64,000 nucleotides of DNA. Source: Candidatus Woykebacteria bacterium. Lineage in GTDB: Bacteria; Patescibacteriota; Microgenomatia; Woykebacterales; RBG-16-39-9b. The first letter of the stretch is position 1, and the number at the start of each line of letters is the position of its first letter. A program made the position numbers and the translations under genes. The notes below the pieces were generated by a model that was not told where the DNA came from, ran no database searches, and saw nothing but the letters and a program-made list of their open reading frames with translations. The stretch covers positions 3,954 through 67,953 of the forward strand of contig JBBDPN010000002.1 in the NCBI GenBank assembly GCA_040876265.1, written 5' to 3'. This document shows positions 4,403 through 64,000 of the stretch, in pieces.

Positions 4403-4496
4403 TCAGTTTTCAAAATATATTTGAAGTTAAGTTCATTATTTGCTAAAATCCCCTTGCTCTCTTACATCTTATATCTTAAGTCTTAGATCTAAATAG

Positions 4497-4572
4497 GGGC
4501 CTGTGGCGCAATTGGTAGCGCGCCTCCATGGCATGGAGGAGGTTAGGGGTTCAAGTCCCCTCAGGTCCACCA
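4497..4572 (+). tRNA. tRNA-Ala (anticodon GGC)
   Basis: Cloverleaf read by eye. Acceptor GGGCCTG/CAGGTCC carries the G3:U70 Ala identity pair. Anticodon loop is AUGGCAU. CCA is encoded. Confidence 0.85.
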
Positions 4573-4573
4573 A

Positions 4574-4649
4574 GGGCCGTTAGCTCAGTGATCAGAGCGC
4601 TGCCTTCGCATGGCAGAGGTCGTGGGTTTAAATCCCACACGGTCCACCA
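4574..4649 (+). tRNA. tRNA-Ala (anticodon CGC)
   Basis: Acceptor GGGCCGT/ACGGTCC with G3:U70. Anticodon loop is UUCGCAU. Encoded CCA. One nucleotide after the previous tRNA. Confidence 0.85.
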
Positions 4650-29165: not shown

Positions 29166-29422
29166 AACCAGGCGAGCAATAGATTTCAAATGAACAACCC
29201 AGCGTTGCTGTTGGGCTAATCATAAAAATGAGACGTGACCTTAGCCCACGACCTGGCTGACTTCAGGCAGGAGTGGTCGCAGACCATGTTACATATAAAT
29301 AGGCCGTGAATCTTAAATAGTGGAATGCTATCTGACAACGATCAAGATAGCAATGCAACTATCGCAGGTCATGGCCAACAAATGAAAAGCCCCGATTTTA
29401 ATCGGGGCTTAACATATTAATA

Positions 29423-29532
29423 CGGCCATGACCTACTTTCCCAGGCCCTGCGGACCAAGTATCATCGGCGCTGCCAGTTTTTACGACCGAGTTCGGGATG
29501 GGATCGGGTAGAGCCCTGGCGCTCCAACGGCC
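29423..29532 (-). rRNA. rrf: 5S rRNA
   Basis: The minus strand reads ...CCCGAACUCGGUCGUAAAAACUGGCAGCGCCGAUGAUACUUGG...GGGAAAGUAGGUCAUGGCCG, matching 5S conserved blocks. Ends are approximate. Confidence 0.7.
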
Positions 29533-29777
29533 TTGAGTTAGTCGTCAGTTGTAAGTTGTAAGCAACTTAACAACTAACCCAAAACCGTTTTTCTTACAAC
29601 TTAGAAATTAAATCTTATAACTAAGTCCTGCACCCTGAAAACTGGATAGAAGTATTTTGGATCTGATGTGATCTTAGAGAACGGAGCACTATTGAAACAA
29701 AGATTTCAATAGTAGCGTAGTTCTCGCAGATCGCAACTGATCCTAAGGATCTTTTACGATCTGTTAGTACGGCTTAG

Positions 29778-32660
<2,883 letters not shown>

Positions 32661-32856
32661 CAGATAACAGTTACCAAGACGTTAACTGCTATCTGACCTT
32701 CTATCCAGTTTTTAAGGTACCATCTTAGATCAAAGATATAAGATGTTAGATGTAAGATATCTTAAAGTCTGACATCTTAAATCTGACATCCATACCTTGG
32801 CTTGCCATGAGCAAGACTTCGACGTTGAGCTCAGTCGAACCGCGCAGAGCGTCGAA

Positions 32857-32933
32857 TGGTGGACCTGGCCGGATTCGAACCGGCGACCTCTGCCTTGCAA
32901 AGGCAGCGCTCTAACCAACTGAGCCACAGGCCC
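32857..32933 (-). tRNA. tRNA-Ala (anticodon UGC) in the 16S-23S spacer
   Basis: Reverse complement GGGCCTGTGGCTCAGTTGGTTAGAGCGCTGCCTTTGCAAGGCAGAGGTCGCCGGTTCGAATCCGGCCAGGTCCACCA. G3:U70 present. Anticodon loop is UUUGCAA. Confidence 0.85.
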
Positions 32934-33241
32934 GCGCAAGCACAAGGCGCTATTCTAGCAATATTAAATTTTGGTGTCTAGAGGGAACTTTAGGTTGGAG
33001 GTGAATTACCTACGCTTCTACGAAGTGAGTAAGAAACAAATATAAGTTTTGCGTAAATCACTTGCCTAAAATCCCTCCTGTGAATGATCCTTCGACGCTG
33101 CTCAGGATCACCCCGAGCTTGCCGAAGGGTGAGAATAATTCACTCATCAACCGCAATATAGCACCAATTTGGGCTTCCGTCAAGGTAGAGACAGACCAGT
33201 TAGCACTCTTGAAAAGTGCTTTGCTAATTTTTAGCCCACGC

Positions 33242-33300
33242 TAGTGGTCGCAGCACGCAAGAGTATCTAAATAATGAGTTTCTAACGAAATTATTTAGTT
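33242..33300 (-). promoter_or_regulatory. Hairpin (CTAAATAAT..ATTATTTAG) followed by box TAYTCTTGCG..GCGACCACTA, spacer copy; boxB/boxA-like antitermination candidate
   Basis: The same two-part element recurs at 37357-37435 upstream of 16S. It lies upstream of tRNA-Ala/23S in the sense orientation. Confidence 0.4.
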
Positions 33301-33380
33301 ACGGAGCGGGTTTAGCAACAGCGCAGCACGCGGAGTAGCTGGCTTTGAGCGCTAGCGAAACGGCATAAGCTACGAGCGGG

Positions 33381-33734
33381 CTATCTGTGGCTTTCGTTGA
33401 GGATCTTCCAGTTCCAGTTTCTTTTTTTGTTGGAGCCGATTTTCTTGATGATGGCTTTTTCGAGGTCAATTTTCAATGATCCAGAAAGATGTAGTAATCG
33501 TTGGAGTACGTCGCCAAGCTCTTCTTCAAAACCACCTTTGCCTTTAATTTTTTTGTGGCGATAAGCCTCATAAGCTTCGGAGATTTCGCTGTGAAGCAAG
33601 GCTATCTTTTCCGGCACGCTTATATCTTTCCGACTTGTGCCAAAACCTTTTTCCCGGGCTTGTTCCATAACGAGTTCCGTTAATTGTTTCAGGGTAAGAT
33701 TTTTCACGAAGGTATTATATACCCGTAAATCCAA
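33381..33734 (-). CDS. MazG-like nucleoside triphosphate pyrophosphohydrolase domain protein, encoded inside the rRNA spacer
   Basis: KIALLHSEISEAYEAYR ... EELGDVLQRLLHL matches the MazG/NTP-PPase helix pair with the EExxE/ExxD metal ligands. Same strand as the rRNAs. Confidence 0.55.
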   Translation of the reverse strand: MDLRVYNTFVKNLTLKQLTELVMEQAREKGFGTSRKDISVPEKIALLHSEISEAYEAYRHKKIKGKGGFEEELGDVLQRLLHLSGSLKIDLEKAIIKKIGSNKKRNWNWKILNESHR

Positions 33735-34009
33735 TCGCGAACTTGGTCTGGATCATAAAAACTTCCATTAAGAATAAAATAATGTGTCTTGGGAAATTCA
33801 AGAATAGTGTCATTAATTAATTCAAGCTCGTTTTCTATCGAACCAAAAAAAGATTCGCAGGGTCTTACCCTGTGAGTAAAATGATACCGCCCAAGAGAGT
33901 GTATTTTGATAGTCATATGATTCTCCATGTGAGAAATTTTGGTACCCATAACTATATTATACAAATCTTATCTGACCCATTGAGTTCATCAAAAAAAAAG
34001 GGGGGGGGA

Positions 34010-34384
34010 TTAAAACAAGGTTTCGGGTTTGACCCTGTGTTTAATCAAGCATTCATTGTAAAAAGCGTTTATTTCATCTGGTGTTTTCAACCCACCTTTT
34101 AACTGGATGTAGCTATAATAATCTGTAATGCCACCAACGTTAGGTATCAATTCCGGCTCGTAAATAGCTGCATTCAAGGGTCTGTTGTCAGCAATTTTCG
34201 CTTTTTTTCTAAATTCGCTTATACAGATTTGCCTTACCTCCACTGGTCTCCATTCAAACCAATAGAAACTACCAATCAAAAATAATGTTATTGAGGCTAA
34301 AGATACTGATAAAAAGATGGTCTTAGATTTGTTCATAAATATTTTTGAAAATATGGTGGGCGCGGATGGGATAAACCGCTCCAT
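34010..34384 (-). CDS. Small membrane-anchored hypothetical protein inside the rRNA spacer
   Basis: 124-aa ORF with one N-terminal TM helix (TIFLSVSLASITLFLIGSFYWF). On the same strand as the rRNAs. No recognisable family. Confidence 0.3.
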   Translation of the reverse strand: MERFIPSAPTIFSKIFMNKSKTIFLSVSLASITLFLIGSFYWFEWRPVEVRQICISEFRKKAKIADNRPLNAAIYEPELIPNVGGITDYYSYIQLKGGLKTPDEINAFYNECLIKHRVKPETLF

Positions 34385-34501
34385 AATTCGAAACTTTCAG
34401 TTTCTTAAGTATTCCCGCGTTTTGCGACCACGCTAAGCGTGGGCTACGAACCTGGGACCCCTACATTAGACGCAACTAAAGCTGCTATCTTTTGCGATTC
34501 A

Positions 34502-34577
34502 TGGTGCGCGCGCATGGATTCGAACCATGGACCCCTACATTATCAGTGTAGTGCTCTAACCACTGAGCTACGCGCGC
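34502..34577 (-). tRNA. tRNA-Ile (anticodon GAU) in the 16S-23S spacer
   Basis: Reverse complement GCGCGCGTAGCTCAGTGGTTAGAGCACTACACTGATAATGTAGGGGTCCATGGTTCGAATCCATGCGCGCGCACCA. Anticodon loop is CUGAUAA. Confidence 0.85.
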
Positions 34578-34827
34578 AAAAGTGCACCGCTTCGCGTTTC
34601 GCTTTTTCTTACGCAAAAGTCATAGTTGTGCTCTAACCACTGAGCTATCCGCCCAGATTTTCAAAATACAGATCAACGCTCGTACCACTGACCTGCCTGC
34701 CGGCAGGCAGGGCTACGCGCCCAAATCGAGTTCAAATTCTAGCATAAACGCAAAAACCCCGCAACGTACGGGGTTTTCCAATTAATGTAATCCTTCGATC
34801 ATCTCAGGATTTTGCTTCGCTCAACAA

Positions 34828-34852
34828 CTCAACATGTAGCAAGAACGAACGT
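34828..34852 (-). promoter_or_regulatory. 3' half of the 16S processing stem (pairs with 36640-36662)
   Basis: CAACATGTAGCAAGAAC here is the exact reverse complement of GTTCTTGCTACATGTTG at 36644-36660. This is the classic long-range stem bracketing 16S for RNase III. Confidence 0.6.
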
Positions 34853-34996
34853 CCTTCCACCAAAGTGGTGGGTGACTTAGTCTTGCCGTGAGAGCAAGAC
34901 CATAGAGCCATAAATATCGTAGCTCTGATTGCTCCTTTTGTCTCCCATACTTGGCAACCCTCCGATTTAATCGGAGTTTACCTAAATATAAAAAGA

Positions 34997-36490
<1,494 letters not shown>

Positions 36491-36864
36491 AAGATCGCTC
36501 CGTACTTCCCCACTCTTTGTAAAGGGCGGGTTCGGTACTCTCGCGTTCTGCGCTCTGCAAAGCAGAGCTTAGAAAAGTTGATCAGTTGTTCAGAATTGAC
36601 GTTCTTTTCCTACTTACATTGTCCTTGCGGCAACTGTAAGAAGGGTTCTTGCTACATGTTGAATTGTCCTCCGATTTGATCGGAGAGCAATTTGTTAAAT
36701 TGTCAAAGTGCTTGATTGGTATGTTCTCCAACGAAAAAGAGCTGGCACAAACCGAGCTCTTGCAAAGGGTCCAAATGTGCACTCAAAAATAAGTTTACAT
36801 ACCAATTCTCATTTCCGAACTCATTTTAGTTTAAAAATTATACTCTGTCAAGGGACAGCGGGTA

Positions 36865-58968: not shown

Positions 58969-61128
58969 ATGGATGGAATTCCTGAACAAACAATTGGTCC
59001 ACAAGTAGCCAAAAACCCCTTGGAGGCCTACGGCCGTGATCTTACTTCCCTAGCTAAGAACGGAAAATTGGATCCGGTTATTGGTCGTGATGGTGAGATC
59101 CGTCGGGTGATGCAAATCCTTTCCAGAAGGACGAAAAATAATCCCGTTTTGGTAGGTGAAGCTGGCGTGGGTAAAACCGCCATCGTGGAAGGTCTTGCCC
59201 AAAGAATGGTGGCCGGTGACGTGCCAGACACTTTGAAAAACAAAGAACTGGTGCAACTGGATATGGCGGCTATTGTCGCCGGAGCCGCGTTCCGCGGTGA
59301 ATTTGAAGAAAGGCTAAAGGCGGTTCTCAAAGCTGTAACTGAAGGCGACGGTAAATATATTTTATTTATCGACGAGCTGCACACCGTGGTTGGTACCGGC
59401 AAAGCTGAAGGTGCCGTAGATGCCGCCAATATCCTCAAGCCTTCTCTTGCTCGCGGCGAACTACATATGATCGGCGCTACGACAAATAAAGAGTACCGCG
59501 AGTACATAGAGCGCGACCCGGCCTTTGAACGCAGATTCCAACCGGTTTACGTGGAGCAGCCTAGTGTCGAAGACACTGTCGCTATATTGCGTGGTTTAAA
59601 GGAGCGCTACGAGGTCCACCACGGAGTAAGGATCACCGACGCAGCGATCATTGCCGCGGCAGGGCTTTCCGCTCGTTATATTTCTGGTCGTTTTCTGCCA
59701 GACAAAGCAGTTGACCTCATCGACGAAGCCACATCTTCTCTAAAAATGGAAGTAGAATCTATGCCGGTAGAACTCGACAGCCTTAAGAGAAACGTTTTGC
59801 AACTAGAAATTGAGCAACAAGCCTTAAAAAAGGAAAAGGACTCATCCAGTCGGGAACGTCTACAAAATCTCGAGAAAGAGTTAAAGAGCAAAAAGCAAAA
59901 ATTTGATGATCTTGAGGCACAATGGAAAAAAGAAAAAGACGCTATCGGTAAGCTACAATCTATCAGTTCTGAACTCGAAAAAAACAAAATCGCTCTTGAA
60001 ACAGCTGAAAGAGACGCAGATTTAAACCGGGCAGCGGAGATCAAATTTGGTAAAATTCCACAGCTTAAAGAAAAAATTAAAGAGGCAAATAAAGCTCTTC
60101 AGCAAGTAACAGATGGCAGTCCTGCCCTACTGCGAGAAGAAGTAACGGCGGAAGATATTGCCAAAGTTGTCTCCCTTTGGACAGGTATTCCTGTTGCCCG
60201 GCTACTAGAAGGAGAAGCAGCAAAACTCTCCAAAATGGAAGAGGAACTTCACGCTCGTATGGTGGATCAAGACGAGGCGATCAAATCGGTTGCCAACGCT
60301 ATCCGCCGCCACCGGGCTGGAGTAAGTGAAGAAAGCAAACCAATCGGTAGTTTTATTTTCTTTGGACCAACTGGTGTCGGTAAAACAGAATTGGCCAGAT
60401 CTTTAGCTGATTTTCTATTTAATGACGAGCACGCTATGGTGCGCATCGATATGAGTGAGTATATGGAACAGCACACTGTGGCCAGACTCATCGGTGCGCC
60501 GCCAGGATACATTGGTTTTGAGGAAGGTGGGCAGCTGACAGAAGCGGTGCGGAGAAAACCCTACAGCGTGATACTTTTTGATGAACTAGAAAAAGCCCAT
60601 CGAGACGTTTTCAATCTCCTACTTCAAGTGCTAGAACCTGGAAGATTGACTGATGGACGTGGTAGAACCGTAGATTTTCGAAACAGTGTAATTATTATGA
60701 CCAGTAATTTAGGAAGCGAGATAATTCAAAAATATGAAGGGAAAACCCCGGGGGTAATGAAAGAAGAGCTTATAGGGCTGGTGAGGAAATCTTTTCGACC
60801 AGAATTCCTCAACCGAGTGGATGAAATTGTCGTGTTTAATCCTCTTGGCGAGAAGGAAATAAGACAAATTACTGGTTTACAATTAAACAAAGTTATAAGC
60901 CGTTTCAAGGAAAAAGGGATCACTCTCAAAATTTCTGACGAGGTGGCATTAAAAATAGCCAAAGAAGGCTTTGATCCTGTTTGGGGTGCCCGCCCATTAA
61001 AGCGAGTCGTACAAAACCAGCTTCTGGACGAACTTTCAATGCAGATTGTGGAAGGTGGAATCAAGGGCGGCGATACGGTGACCGTCGCCCTTGATAATGG
61101 CAGGATCGTGTTTAGCAGATCCGGCTAA
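58969..61128 (+). CDS. clpB: ClpB-type disaggregase lacking the N-terminal domain
   Basis: Two AAA modules ([16 protein letters not shown]) separated by a long coiled-coil M-domain ([20 protein letters not shown]...). Starts directly at the NBD1 linker. Length 719 aa. Confidence 0.85.
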
Positions 61129-61227
61129 TCTGCTTGTATTGGGCCTCTGCCTCCTTCAGCTTTCTCCTTTAGCTAAACATCTCCCCGATTTCTACTAGCT
61201 GGCTTGCGTAGGGTCCTTCTTTGAGCT

Positions 61228-61380
61228 GCTCCTTAACGAGTCTTTCAAACGCCACGGACAGCGTGCAATCCCACATCACGGGTTTTTTCTACGTGGTCCG
61301 TGTTGGGCCGGGGTCGGGTAAGCCAAAAGAAGAGACAAACGCCAACCACAATGCCGACGAGTAACCACCAGTTTGGCTTC
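61228..61380 (-). CDS. Candidate small hydrophobic peptide (~50 aa), paralog of 61882..62039
   Basis: Translated by hand: MKPNWWLLVGIVVGVCLFFWLTRPRP.. with SD AAAGGAG 8 nt upstream. Not in the ORF track because of its size. Confidence 0.3.
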
Positions 61381-61403
61381 ATCACCCGCTCCTTTCTAGA
61401 TAG

Positions 61404-61604
61404 TCATCTCTTTAATCTACGCAACCGGCTGGCATACGGCTCTTCTTGTAGCTGATCCGTGACAATAATCTCAAATGCCTCAGACAGCGTACGATCCCAC
61501 ATTACGGCGATGTAATGCAGCTGCGCCACCAGCGTCCTAGGCAAGGAGACCGTCATCCTGGCTCTGTCTTCTTTACCCTTCACGCCGCCGCTCGGAGAAT
61601 CCAA
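61404..61604 (-). CDS. Ribbon-helix-helix (CopG/antitoxin-like) DNA-binding protein
   Basis: MTVSLPRTLVAQLHYIAVMWDRTLSEAFEIIV fits an RHH beta-strand plus two helices. A truncated second copy lies at about 61133-61243. Confidence 0.45.
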   Translation of the reverse strand: MDSPSGGVKGKEDRARMTVSLPRTLVAQLHYIAVMWDRTLSEAFEIIVTDQLQEEPYASRLRRLKR

Positions 61605-61933
61605 ACAGGTTCTTCGCCCTTCTTGTAGGCCTTCTTGATCACCACCTTGTGAACAGGCTGGCCGCGACGACGAAGTCTGTAGATAAGCCGGTGGTAATCC
61701 TTACCCCAACCAACTACTTTATTTTCGTAAACCGCTACGAAGCAGTTTGGATACCTACCCTGGAGATCTTCGTAATGGGCGGAAAAGTACCCCAGATCAG
61801 CTTGGAGTTGCCTCATCTGCTCAACGAGATCTTGTGGAGTCAGACCAACTCTTTGAAAGTAGGCCTCTAAATCCGCAGCCTTCATCGTCCACTCCTTTCT
61901 CGATTTTCTCCTAAATATTTCGAACTCTGCCAC
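61580..61933 (-). CDS. Hypothetical protein (117 aa) overlapping the RHH gene start
   Basis: ORF with a 25-nt overlap onto the RHH gene. No family recognised. Confidence 0.35.
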   Translation of the reverse strand: MAEFEIFRRKSRKEWTMKAADLEAYFQRVGLTPQDLVEQMRQLQADLGYFSAHYEDLQGRYPNCFVAVYENKVVGWGKDYHRLIYRLRRRGQPVHKVVIKKAYKKGEEPVWILRAAA

Positions 61934-62039
61934 GGCCGTGCGATCCAGAAGAAGAGATAAACACCAACTATAATGCCAATCAACAGGACGTGATTTGTCT
62001 TCCGTTCATCTCCTTCGACAGCCGTACCTTTAGTTGGCA
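61882..62039 (-). CDS. Candidate small hydrophobic peptide (~52 aa)
   Basis: Hand translation MPTKGTAVEGDERKTNHVLLIGIIVGVYLFFWIARPWQ... Its hydrophobic core is shared with the 61228..61380 peptide. Overlaps both neighbouring genes. Confidence 0.25.
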
Positions 62040-62392
62040 TGAACTAGAACTCCCTCGGGATGATAGATATCACCTCTAGAGAGCGGGGGTCCGGAGAAAG
62101 GATCCTCGCCCTCCTCGACTTGATCTTCTGGTACAAATTCGAACCCAAACTCACCCGAACCCTCTACCAGTACTAGATGTTTGCTTGGCCTTGGGCTCCA
62201 GAACGCTGCCCATAAGTCCAGGTAGAAGCGGATTCTCTCGTGCCTCAGCCGCGCGTCCTCCTGGATGAGCAATATCGGCAGCCCGATCGCTATATCAAAA
62301 AGGGTCGGCATGATTATCACCACCTTTTGCATCGACCGACCAAACTCTCCTCCGTTTGATTCAAAAGTAGCACTATGGGGTGAGGTTGTCAA
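62030..62392 (-). CDS. Hypothetical protein
   Basis: 120-aa ORF in the GC-rich small-gene cluster. Confidence 0.3.
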   Translation of the reverse strand: MTTSPHSATFESNGGEFGRSMQKVVIIMPTLFDIAIGLPILLIQEDARLRHERIRFYLDLWAAFWSPRPSKHLVLVEGSGEFGFEFVPEDQVEEGEDPFSGPPLSRGDIYHPEGVLVHAN

Positions 62393-62960
62393 TTAGATTC
62401 CTTGAAAAAGAAGATGCCGGCTCACTGGTGGTGAAACCGGCACTCGTGATCTCTTGGGGACGTTGGGTCAGATCTCTACGTCTGGGCCCACTTCCTCCGA
62501 ATCGAAGGCGAGAAAGACGAAGGTAGCAATCGGAAGAGCGGCCGCCAGCATAATGGCTGCCTTCTCGATCCGACTAAGTCTCTCCTGCTTTTTCTCCATC
62601 TTGATCTCCTCCTTAGACTTCCAAGGTAAGCGGCAGAAACATGTGCTGCTGTGGGTCGACGTGTGTGTCGGTTAGTTCGTCCAGCTTCCTCCCTAGGAAT
62701 CGCCGGCGAGTGTTAAATACCCTTGGTGCTTGTGCCAAAAGGTGGCGAGGATCGGGACTGAGCATCTGCCCAAGGCCTGGAGCTTGCGCTCTTAATCTAA
62801 TGGCTTGGCGATGCCCGTTCTCCCGTATGCCCTCCAAACGCTCCACCTTGACACGAAGCTGTTTCGTCAATGTGCGCCTCCTTCTTCCGACTTTTTTGAA
62901 ATTATATACCTACCAAGCAACCATTTCAACATGAAAAACCGCCCCTGTTCCGGAATCAGA

Positions 62961-63275
62961 TCAGCGGCGGTGATACCTCTTTACCCACTCTTCTTTCCTG
63001 TGTCTCTCAATGGCTTTAGCGGTATCCTTTGGATCCTCTGGTCCAATTGGATCACGGCTGATACCCTCGTTACTAGGTCGTACTTCCTGCTGTAGTGGGC
63101 CATCGTTGAACTGCTCGACCAGCTCGCCTTCCAATCCGACGTTCCGGTTACAAAGCGCTAGGATAGCCTTCCCTATGTATGCGCTCATCAACGCCGGGAC
63201 TACCACCAGCAGAACTATTATTATCACGCGTGCATAAAAGGCTGAATCAGAGTCTCCAAACAGCCAGTCGATCAT
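62961..63275 (-). CDS. Small membrane protein (1 TM) with basic C-terminus
   Basis: ARVIIIVLLVVVPALMSAYIG TM helix. Overlaps the next gene by 4 nt. Confidence 0.35.
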   Translation of the reverse strand: MIDWLFGDSDSAFYARVIIIVLLVVVPALMSAYIGKAILALCNRNVGLEGELVEQFNDGPLQQEVRPSNEGISRDPIGPEDPKDTAKAIERHRKEEWVKRYHRR

Positions 63276-63475
63276 GCCTCTTCATCCTCCGGTTGCTTAT
63301 CCGCGTACGGGATCTTACTCGCTGCCTCGTCCGTACCAACTTTTATCCAAGACCAAAGTATGGACACGATTGCAACAGCGGTGATTATAGACAGCAAGGC
63401 GACTACTACCCAACCCCAAATTGCATCTGGATCGGACGCGGAGGCTAGGAACACTTGATCAACCATTATGTTCAT
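63272..63475 (-). CDS. Small membrane protein (1 TM)
   Basis: WGWVVVALLSIITAVAIVSILWSWI TM helix. Acidic C-terminus. Confidence 0.35.
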   Translation of the reverse strand: MNIMVDQVFLASASDPDAIWGWVVVALLSIITAVAIVSILWSWIKVGTDEAASKIPYADKQPEDEEA

Positions 63476-63490
63476 TACTCAACCCTCCGA

Positions 63491-63763
63491 TCACTGCTCT
63501 TCTGGGTCCTTGAAAGATTCCCTGATCAAATCGGCGATCCCAAGCTCCTCAATGTGTTGCCCCAAAATATCAAGGAGCCTGCTTTCATCTACTGTGGCGT
63601 ATCCAAGTGACTTTTGCAGCAAGGTTTGTCCGATTTCGCGAATTTCTTCCGATGTGAATTCGCTAATTAGGATCTCGAGCTGCTTAGGCTCATCGTCGGT
63701 TCGAAGTAGACGCCAAAGCCTTTCAGCATAGTCTGGGTGCCCGAGTATAGTTGCCTCAATCAT
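63491..63763 (-). CDS. Small acidic hypothetical protein
   Basis: 90-aa ORF. First gene of the compact minus-strand cluster. Confidence 0.35.
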   Translation of the reverse strand: MIEATILGHPDYAERLWRLLRTDDEPKQLEILISEFTSEEIREIGQTLLQKSLGYATVDESRLLDILGQHIEELGIADLIRESFKDPEEQ

Positions 63764-63838
63764 TTCTCCTCAATCCTCCTTCCCAAAAGTGGAAAGATAT
63801 TACATTACAATTGGGCAAATTACAAGATGATACAGAAG

Positions 63839-64000
63839 TTATTTAGAGGCGGCTTCGACGAGGTTCATCATGAGTCCGGCCACTATCATCGGGCCTACCC
63901 CACCGGGAACAGGACTGATAGCAGCGGCTACATTTTTAACATTTTCGTAGTCAACATCACCAACTAATTTTTTTGTATTTGGCACTCTATTTGTACCGAC
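63839..64000 (-). CDS. folD: Methylenetetrahydrofolate dehydrogenase/cyclohydrolase FolD, 3' end only (5' end outside window)
   Basis: Reverse-strand translation ...[53 protein letters not shown] matches the FolD C-terminal [10 protein letters not shown] block. Confidence 0.7.

Follow-up and report, generated by a model that had tools for sequence, protein, structure and literature searches.

A cluster of small genes between folD and clpB of Candidatus Woykebacteria: evidence for inheritance in place and for a duplicated tail

Small genes in the folD-clpB gap

The DNA analysed here is a 64,000-nucleotide stretch of a Candidatus Woykebacteria genome (assembly GCA_040876265.1, contig JBBDPN010000002.1, positions 3,954 to 67,953 of the forward strand; hereafter the window), and its final 2.9 kb hold a row of small genes flanked by clpB on the plus strand (58969-61128) and by the 3' end of folD on the minus strand (63839-63985). 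From a mechanical listing of open reading frames (ORFs) and a reading of the minus strand, we mapped eleven small minus-strand ORFs, named A to K, that occupy this gap (Table 1). An initial annotation, made from the sequence alone, had counted at least eight small overlapping or abutting ORFs on this strand, which is borne out; its coordinates were right for most of them and off by 8-36 nt for J, K and E. It had also called the region GC-richer, and here the direction is right but the excess is only slight (0.509 in the cluster, compared with 0.476 in the window and 0.463 in clpB).

Most of A to K carry a strong Shine-Dalgarno (SD) motif or overlap a neighbour. Within the part of the cluster nearest to clpB, the end of F and the start of G share 11 nt, the stop of G and the start of H overlap as ATGA, and the stop of H and the start of I overlap as GTGA, while J begins 21 nt after the stop of I and has its own SD, AAAGGAG. 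Hydropathy analysis predicts one transmembrane (TM) helix in each of B, C, E, G and J and a hydrophobic N-terminus in F. The mechanical version of F (120 aa) extends to 62392, where its TTG start is in fact a -35 box, and the true start of F is the ATG at 62332. The 117-aa partner described in the initial annotation is likewise a real gene, H, but it encodes 101 aa from its ATG and is of the DUF5678 type. No family in Pfam, PHROGs, NCBIfam or PADLOC was found for A, B, C, D, E, F, G or J.

Table 1. Features of the folD-clpB gap (positions in the window)
Feature	Position	Strand	Description
A	63491-63763	-	90-aa acidic soluble protein; first gene after folD; strong SD (GGAAGGAGG); PGAP WD187_03245
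B	63272-63475	-	67 aa, single TM
C	62961-63275	-	104 aa, single TM; start overlaps B stop (ATGA)
T1	62933-62971	-	intrinsic terminator after C; hairpin 62971-62938 and U-run
P2	62901-62929	-	predicted sigma-70-type promoter before D, TTGAAA-17-TATAAT, 11/12 matches
D	62613-62870	-	85-aa basic protein, TTG start, orphan family
E	62468-62599	-	43-aa TM peptide
T2	62404-62442	-	intrinsic terminator after E; hairpin 62442-62415 and U-run
P3	62364-62392	-	promoter-like TTGACA-17-TACTTT before F
F	62030-62332	-	100 aa, hydrophobic N-terminus, acidic C-terminal half; PGAP WD187_03225
G	61882-62040	-	52-aa single-TM peptide (LLIGIIVGVYLFFWIARP)
H	61580-61885	-	101 aa from ATG (117 aa mechanically); divergent DUF5678, ends ...ILRAAA; PGAP WD187_03220
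I	61404-61583	-	ribbon-helix-helix-like, 59 aa (GTG start) or 50 aa (ATG start)
J	61245-61382	-	45-aa TM peptide, paralog of G
K	61169-61279	-	shortened copy of I, limited to its helix region; runs into the end of J in a different frame

The small ORFs of the cluster are real genes. Only A, B, C, E, F and H are called by PGAP, in whose annotation D, G, I, J and K are absent, and a second gene caller leaves out G and K. A codon-usage log-likelihood trained on 24 long genes of the window favours the annotated frame in ten of the eleven ORFs, G, I and K among them, and is ambiguous for J. The best evidence that the unannotated ORFs are genes, judged from the sequence, is the pattern of selection between paralogs described below. 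Together, paralog selection and codon usage speak against the possibility, raised in the initial annotation, of spurious ORFs in a noncoding GC-rich stretch, and D, G, I and J, all missed by standard annotation, are very likely real genes. H is 100% identical to the hypothetical protein WD187_03220 of a Candidatus Woykebacteria metagenome-assembled genome, and each protein of the cluster is a singleton among ~15 billion proteins.

A tandem duplication and its decay

The end of the cluster contains two pairs of paralogs. The alignment of G with J scores 88 against a shuffle mean of 21, and that of I with K scores 93 against a shuffle mean of 19; for neither pair was a score this high obtained in 2000 shuffles. 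G and J share the core LL-x-GI-x-VGV-x-LFFW-xx-RP, and I and K are also recognizable as an 81-nt DNA repeat with 74% identity, in which K corresponds to the helix region of I. The tandem duplication proposed in the initial annotation is thereby upheld, in a partly decayed form; the second copy of H and half of the second ribbon-helix-helix (RHH)-like gene would have been lost. No further copies of G/J or I/K were found within the window.

Both pairs show the signature of purifying selection, in which synonymous sites are near saturation and amino acids are kept. For I and K, the synonymous divergence (pS) is 0.78 and the nonsynonymous divergence (pN) is 0.145 (Fisher p 1e-6); for the core of G and J, pS is 0.71 and pN is 0.225 (Fisher p 7e-4). 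As the synonymous sites are nearly saturated and the amino acids kept, both members of each pair must have encoded protein during most of the period after their divergence.

The limits of the homology suggest how the tail may have arisen. The DNA homology between G and J opens at the SD and closes just before the SD of H. That of K sets in exactly at GT(A/G)ATGTGGGAT, at codon 18 of I in its 50-aa form, and runs ~25 nt beyond the stop into the next AAAGGAG. In the simplest history, the tail would fit a tandem duplication of [G-H-I], followed by the loss of the second H (H') and of the 5' half of the second I (I'). The duplication could have occurred by recombination, probably between SD-like AAGGAG repeats, and the subsequent losses would have left J as a working paralog and K as a beheaded remnant. 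K is probably a remnant, since it lacks both the N-terminal strand and an SD.

Two other features of the tail were considered and set aside. A 25-nt similarity between the start of H and the start of J is most simply explained by shared SD-plus-start signals. A programmed frameshift from J into K was rejected on three grounds: the frame of K is +1, a canonical slippery site is missing, and an in-frame TAG is found upstream of K, three codons before its GTG start (four codons before the ATG).

Related loci, transcription signals and protein families

Related loci (given L numbers below) were found by exact-protein look-ups and one metagenome scan; a scan of GTDB genomes with an alignment of H and its close relatives found no relative. 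In L004/L005, L002/L008 and L007, the genes follow the same order, from folD through small genes to F, H, a variable gene and the convergent clpB. These loci also have in common glycosyltransferase and Fpg genes upstream and a Fic gene beyond clpB. Orthologs are detectable for B, D, F and H; A and C have positional analogs, of ~100 aa for the orphan A and an 80-aa TM gene for C. Between the window and its relatives, H is 64-67% identical and B, D and F are 27-49% identical; for calibration, ClpB is 82% identical to that of L002. The ortholog of B is a weak one, the 55-aa TM gene of L004/L005 (27% identity, E 2.5e-8). D is 42-43% identical to its counterparts in L004/L007, with a conserved C-terminus (HVDPQxHMFLPLTLEV), and F, the conserved upstream neighbour of H, is 49% identical to that of L004. 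E sits where the relatives encode an 88-aa, possibly winged-helix protein, W. Searches with D, F and W against PDB sequences gave no significant match.

H is the most conserved gene of the cluster. In L009, the only gene between folD and clpB is the H-like P0006, which is 36% identical to H and ends LILRAAA; as this distant relative has an H-like gene alone there, H is the long-established gene of the site. G, I, J and K, on the other hand, have no counterpart in any relative, and the slot after H varies, holding a 56-aa soluble protein in L002 and TM peptides of 52-54 aa in L006 and L007. All four are accessory genes confined to this strain, placed within or beside the variable slot adjoining H.

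Two of the related loci have further peculiarities beside H. In L007 (1390-2542), the gene after H encodes a 52-aa TM peptide, and next come genes for a 62-aa basic protein and for an NlpC/P60 peptidase (Pfam E 1.4e-11); the peptidase has no N-terminal signal sequence obvious by eye, and the layout is reminiscent of a holin-endolysin pair. In the metagenome contig L038 (540-840), the H ortholog is cut to its last ~27 codons and the stop of this remnant is changed to Ser, resulting in an in-frame fusion with the downstream 52-aa TM peptide. The product, P0005, looked at first sight like a fusion of H with a TM peptide. As it is in fact what is left of a deleted H, with translation continuing into the peptide, it gives no evidence for a physical link between the two.

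Apart from H, the most conserved DNA of the locus is intergenic. The terminator T1 (dG -21.7 kcal/mol, z -3.7), the promoter P2 and the SD of D are nearly invariant in L002 and L004. Of the 10 pairs in the hairpin of T2, 2 have compensatory changes across 4 loci, and both hexamers of P3 are invariant in the same number of loci. By these predicted terminators and promoters, the cluster is divided into three transcription units, [A-B-C], [D-E] and [F-G-H-I-J-K].

Between P2 and the SD of D, the relatives have a 47-nt insert (L002 ~800-850 and L004 ~4455-4505, aligned to window 62900) that contains an inverted repeat, ATCTCGC...GCGAGAT, and a second TATAAT. The window has neither this insert nor W, which the relatives encode after D. 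Together, the insert and W may represent an operator and its regulator, which this genome would have lost or replaced, and their joint absence hints at an exchange of regulators. For DNA binding by W there is weak evidence.

H is a divergent DUF5678 protein. Against the Pfam model of this family (PF18929), it scores 21.3-21.8 bits (E 1.6e-4 to 2.3e-4), just short of the cut-off of 23.2, and for its ortholog P0004 there is a precomputed hit to PF18929. With a profile built from H and its orthologs, 465 representatives out of 1.84 billion come up at E<=1e-3, and PF18929 is matched by 69 of the 75 profile relatives that were scanned (best E 3.2e-13). The AlphaFold2 (AF2) model of H (pLDDT 87) has three N-terminal helices followed by beta-beta-alpha-beta; its best matches in BFVD are DUF5678 proteins (E 3.7e-4), and the fold is as in family members. 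The subfamily closest to H has the C-terminus ...IL-x-x-AA, which is found in 21 of 150 hits of the H profile, concentrated among the best ranks. C-terminal Ala-Ala is the key determinant of ssrA-type recognition by ClpX, and by this analogy it is conceivable, as an idea, that H is a built-in protease substrate.

The DUF5678 family has its own genomic setting elsewhere. Among 28 typical DUF5678 loci from GTDB genomes (L011-L035 among them; mostly Chloroflexota, including Dehalococcoidia), the DUF5678 gene is followed in 16 by a ~150-aa retropepsin-like aspartic protease, often with a 4-nt overlap (e.g. L017 3992-4680 and L011 3983-4671), and one more locus has a DTGS variant. These proteases have the motif LVDTGAD...GVGG...PSLLGRDIL and match Pfam Asp_protease_2, gag-asp_proteas and RVP. 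Neither NCBIfam nor PADLOC contains the pair, and no literature on it was found, nor was anything relevant found in the literature on DUF5678 or on antitoxin systems with retropepsin-like proteases; the window encodes no retropepsin-like protease of this type. Some relatives of H (P0013, P0018, P0020) carry 2-3 tandem DUF5678 repeats per protein. In the 1045-aa P0018 there are 8 matched stretches, but this protein looks like a repetitive low-complexity translation.

The small protein I is probably of the RHH type. It has an MTVSLPRTL strand, a helix, an R-T-x-S-E N-cap and a further helix. Its best matches, both sub-threshold, are two PHROG 'Arc-like repressor' families (E 0.0028 and 0.027), and among PDB sequences it aligns in register with the RHH of EndoAI (E 0.66, also sub-threshold). 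I ends ~13 residues after its RHH-like core; with so little beyond the core, it would have no toxin-neutralizing arm. The RHH assignment in the initial annotation is probable from the pattern and the best matches; Pfam, NCBIfam and the modelled fold do not confirm it.

Elsewhere in the window, the neighbouring clpB encodes a protein of 719 aa (722 aa in L002) that starts just before the first AAA module. Judged from E. coli ClpB, it presumably lacks the usual ~140-residue N-terminal domain, and no separate ORF for this domain is evident upstream. At 4497-4649, a gap of only 1 nt separates two tRNA-Ala genes in head-to-tail arrangement (anticodons GGC and CGC). A complete rRNA operon (16S, tRNA-Ile, tRNA-Ala, 23S, 5S) is found on the minus strand at 29420-36492. 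Large insertions are often seen in the rRNA genes of bacteria of the candidate phyla radiation (CPR); the lengths of the 16S and 23S genes here are normal, implying no large insertions.

Interpretation and alternative explanations

We lean, with modest confidence, towards the explanation that the locus is a chromosomal small-gene cluster, specific to Woykebacteria and inherited vertically, with three units and a strain-specific tail that was duplicated and then decayed. The reality of the genes, the operon structure, the vertical inheritance of the core and the strain-specific, duplicated tail are shown by the data; the joint action of the products and their roles are proposals. The core of the third unit is H, with its partner F kept in the closer relatives. 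In the present genome, this unit also holds genes seen nowhere else, namely the membrane peptide G between F and H, and the RHH-like I joined by the GTGA overlap. Translational coupling could keep the output of G, H and I at a set ratio, and the three could act as a group. I would most likely be a DNA-binding autoregulator, G and J could be small membrane effectors or anchors, and H a conserved soluble component; complexes may form among the products of the cluster. Our best guess is that the set represents a co-translated group of small membrane peptides and a DUF5678 protein with a small DNA-binding regulator.

Several observations weigh against this explanation. Few related loci are available, and what we call conserved rests on ~5 lineages. 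G is called by neither annotation, and the codon-usage support for J is ambiguous. The remnant in L038 shows that H can be lost in nature and is not indispensable. The RHH assignment of I is weak: I has no match in Pfam or NCBIfam, a profile of I and K has none among PDB sequences, and no operator for I was identified. In a single-sequence monomer AF2 model, I has an extended N-terminus, a long helix (7-35) and a second helix (41-49), that is, one long helix and not a helix-turn-helix, and a Foldseek search of this model against the PDB gave no match.

The initial annotation had suggested that the cluster could hide a toxin-antitoxin (TA) or lysis-type module. No toxin, defence or peptidoglycan-hydrolase domain is found in the window, and of the two proposals it is the TA-like one that keeps some standing, as an unlikely but serious alternative. 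In such an addiction or stress module, toxic membrane peptides (G/J) would be restrained by the RHH-like I and/or by a short-lived H, whose conserved Ala-Ala would act like an ssrA-type protease degron. An RHH-like gene followed by the small hydrophobic J with its own SD would fit a type II layout, and duplication followed by decay is typical of TA loci. The slot after H differs among L002, L006, L007 and this genome, the subfamily of H ends in AA (21 of 150 profile hits, mainly among the best ranks), and typical DUF5678 genes occupy the 'antitoxin position' upstream of the retropepsin-like protease. However, the translational locking of G between F and H does not correspond to a TA arrangement, and the short end of I leaves no room for a toxin-neutralizing arm. 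Pfam, NCBIfam, PHROGs and PADLOC show no known toxin or defence family in ORFs A to J, and searches of phage, plasmid and IMG/VR records gave no trace of horizontal spread. Toxic membrane peptides are normally controlled by antisense RNA, but no convincing antisense promoter was found: the only promoter-like site on the plus strand (63361-63388) is far from G/J, and a match to Rfam was not found. The degron idea itself comes by analogy from general knowledge of ClpX recognition.

A more specific form of this idea would be that H, as an AA-ended DUF5678 protein, is a protease-labile restraint on the co-translated G/J, with I setting transcription. We regard this circuit as a long shot. If true, it would be a new TA-like kind specific to CPR bacteria, derived from the widespread and uncharacterized pair of DUF5678 and retropepsin-like protease.

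Still less probable, by a little, is a holin-like or lysis cassette, in which the small TM peptides would permeabilize the membrane for a cell-wall hydrolase. The gene order of L007, where H, a 52-aa TM peptide and a 62-aa basic protein precede the NlpC/P60 peptidase, speaks for such a cassette; yet there is no peptidoglycan hydrolase in or near the cluster of the window, G/J are not detectably related to the L007 peptide, and a phage context was not found.

That the cluster is left over from a prophage, a plasmid or some other mobile element once integrated there, in line with the prophage or plasmid remnant of the initial annotation, is highly improbable. The tiny overlapping genes (an RHH-like gene and small TM proteins among them), the GC content slightly above that of the window and the strain-specific G, I, J and K would be in keeping with such a remnant. 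Against it, the cluster is found at the same chromosomal site in several Woykebacteria species, with the same backbone and with conserved promoters and terminators. No tRNA, att-like repeat or integrase was found at its flanks, and the called genes include no integrase; in phage and plasmid records I is unmatched, and neither I nor H has a match in IMG/VR.

That the smallest ORFs (G, J, K and perhaps I) are chance ORFs in a duplicated noncoding tail is similarly far-fetched: it could account for their missing from PGAP, as D is, for the omission of G and K by the other caller, for a J frame that is not the best by codon usage and for a K that has no SD and no beta-strand, but it is contradicted by the amino acids kept in both paralog pairs despite near-saturated synonymous sites, by SD motifs or coupled overlaps at G, I and J, and by codon usage that backs the frames of G, I and K.

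The apparent 'island' proves to be an inherited, tightly organized set of operons. CPR genomes are rich in small unannotated genes, and in this locus several of them are revealed by the comparison of paralogs together with conserved terminators and promoters. DUF5678 also gains a first picture of its genomic context, being usually paired with a protease in Chloroflexota and being AA-ended and without that protease beside clpB in Woykebacteria. The value of these results lies mainly in better annotation and in a few testable leads.

How the proteins of the cluster compare with known systems can be considered one by one. H resembles DUF5678 proteins in the core motif YP..W/F-VAVY..KVVG..D...L...L...G.P and in its predicted beta-beta-alpha-beta fold. 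Unlike typical members of the family, it is a basic protein with an N-terminal extension of three helices and with the C-terminal ...IL-x-x-AA specific to its subfamily, and whereas typical Chloroflexota DUF5678 genes precede a retropepsin-like protease, H has no such partner. I has the size and pattern of RHH proteins such as the Arc/CopG/MetJ-type repressors and the RHH antitoxins (B. subtilis EndoAI/MazE), but differs from the antitoxins in having no C-terminal neutralizing extension and no recognizable toxin partner. Small hydrophobic membrane peptides include the type I and type V toxins Hok, TisB and GhoT and regulators such as MgrB. G and J are like these in having 45-52 aa, one TM helix and a positively charged flank. 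They have no sequence relationship to them, with chance-level matches confined to the TM segment, and unlike them they have no antisense RNA signature and are located inside a translationally coupled multi-gene operon.

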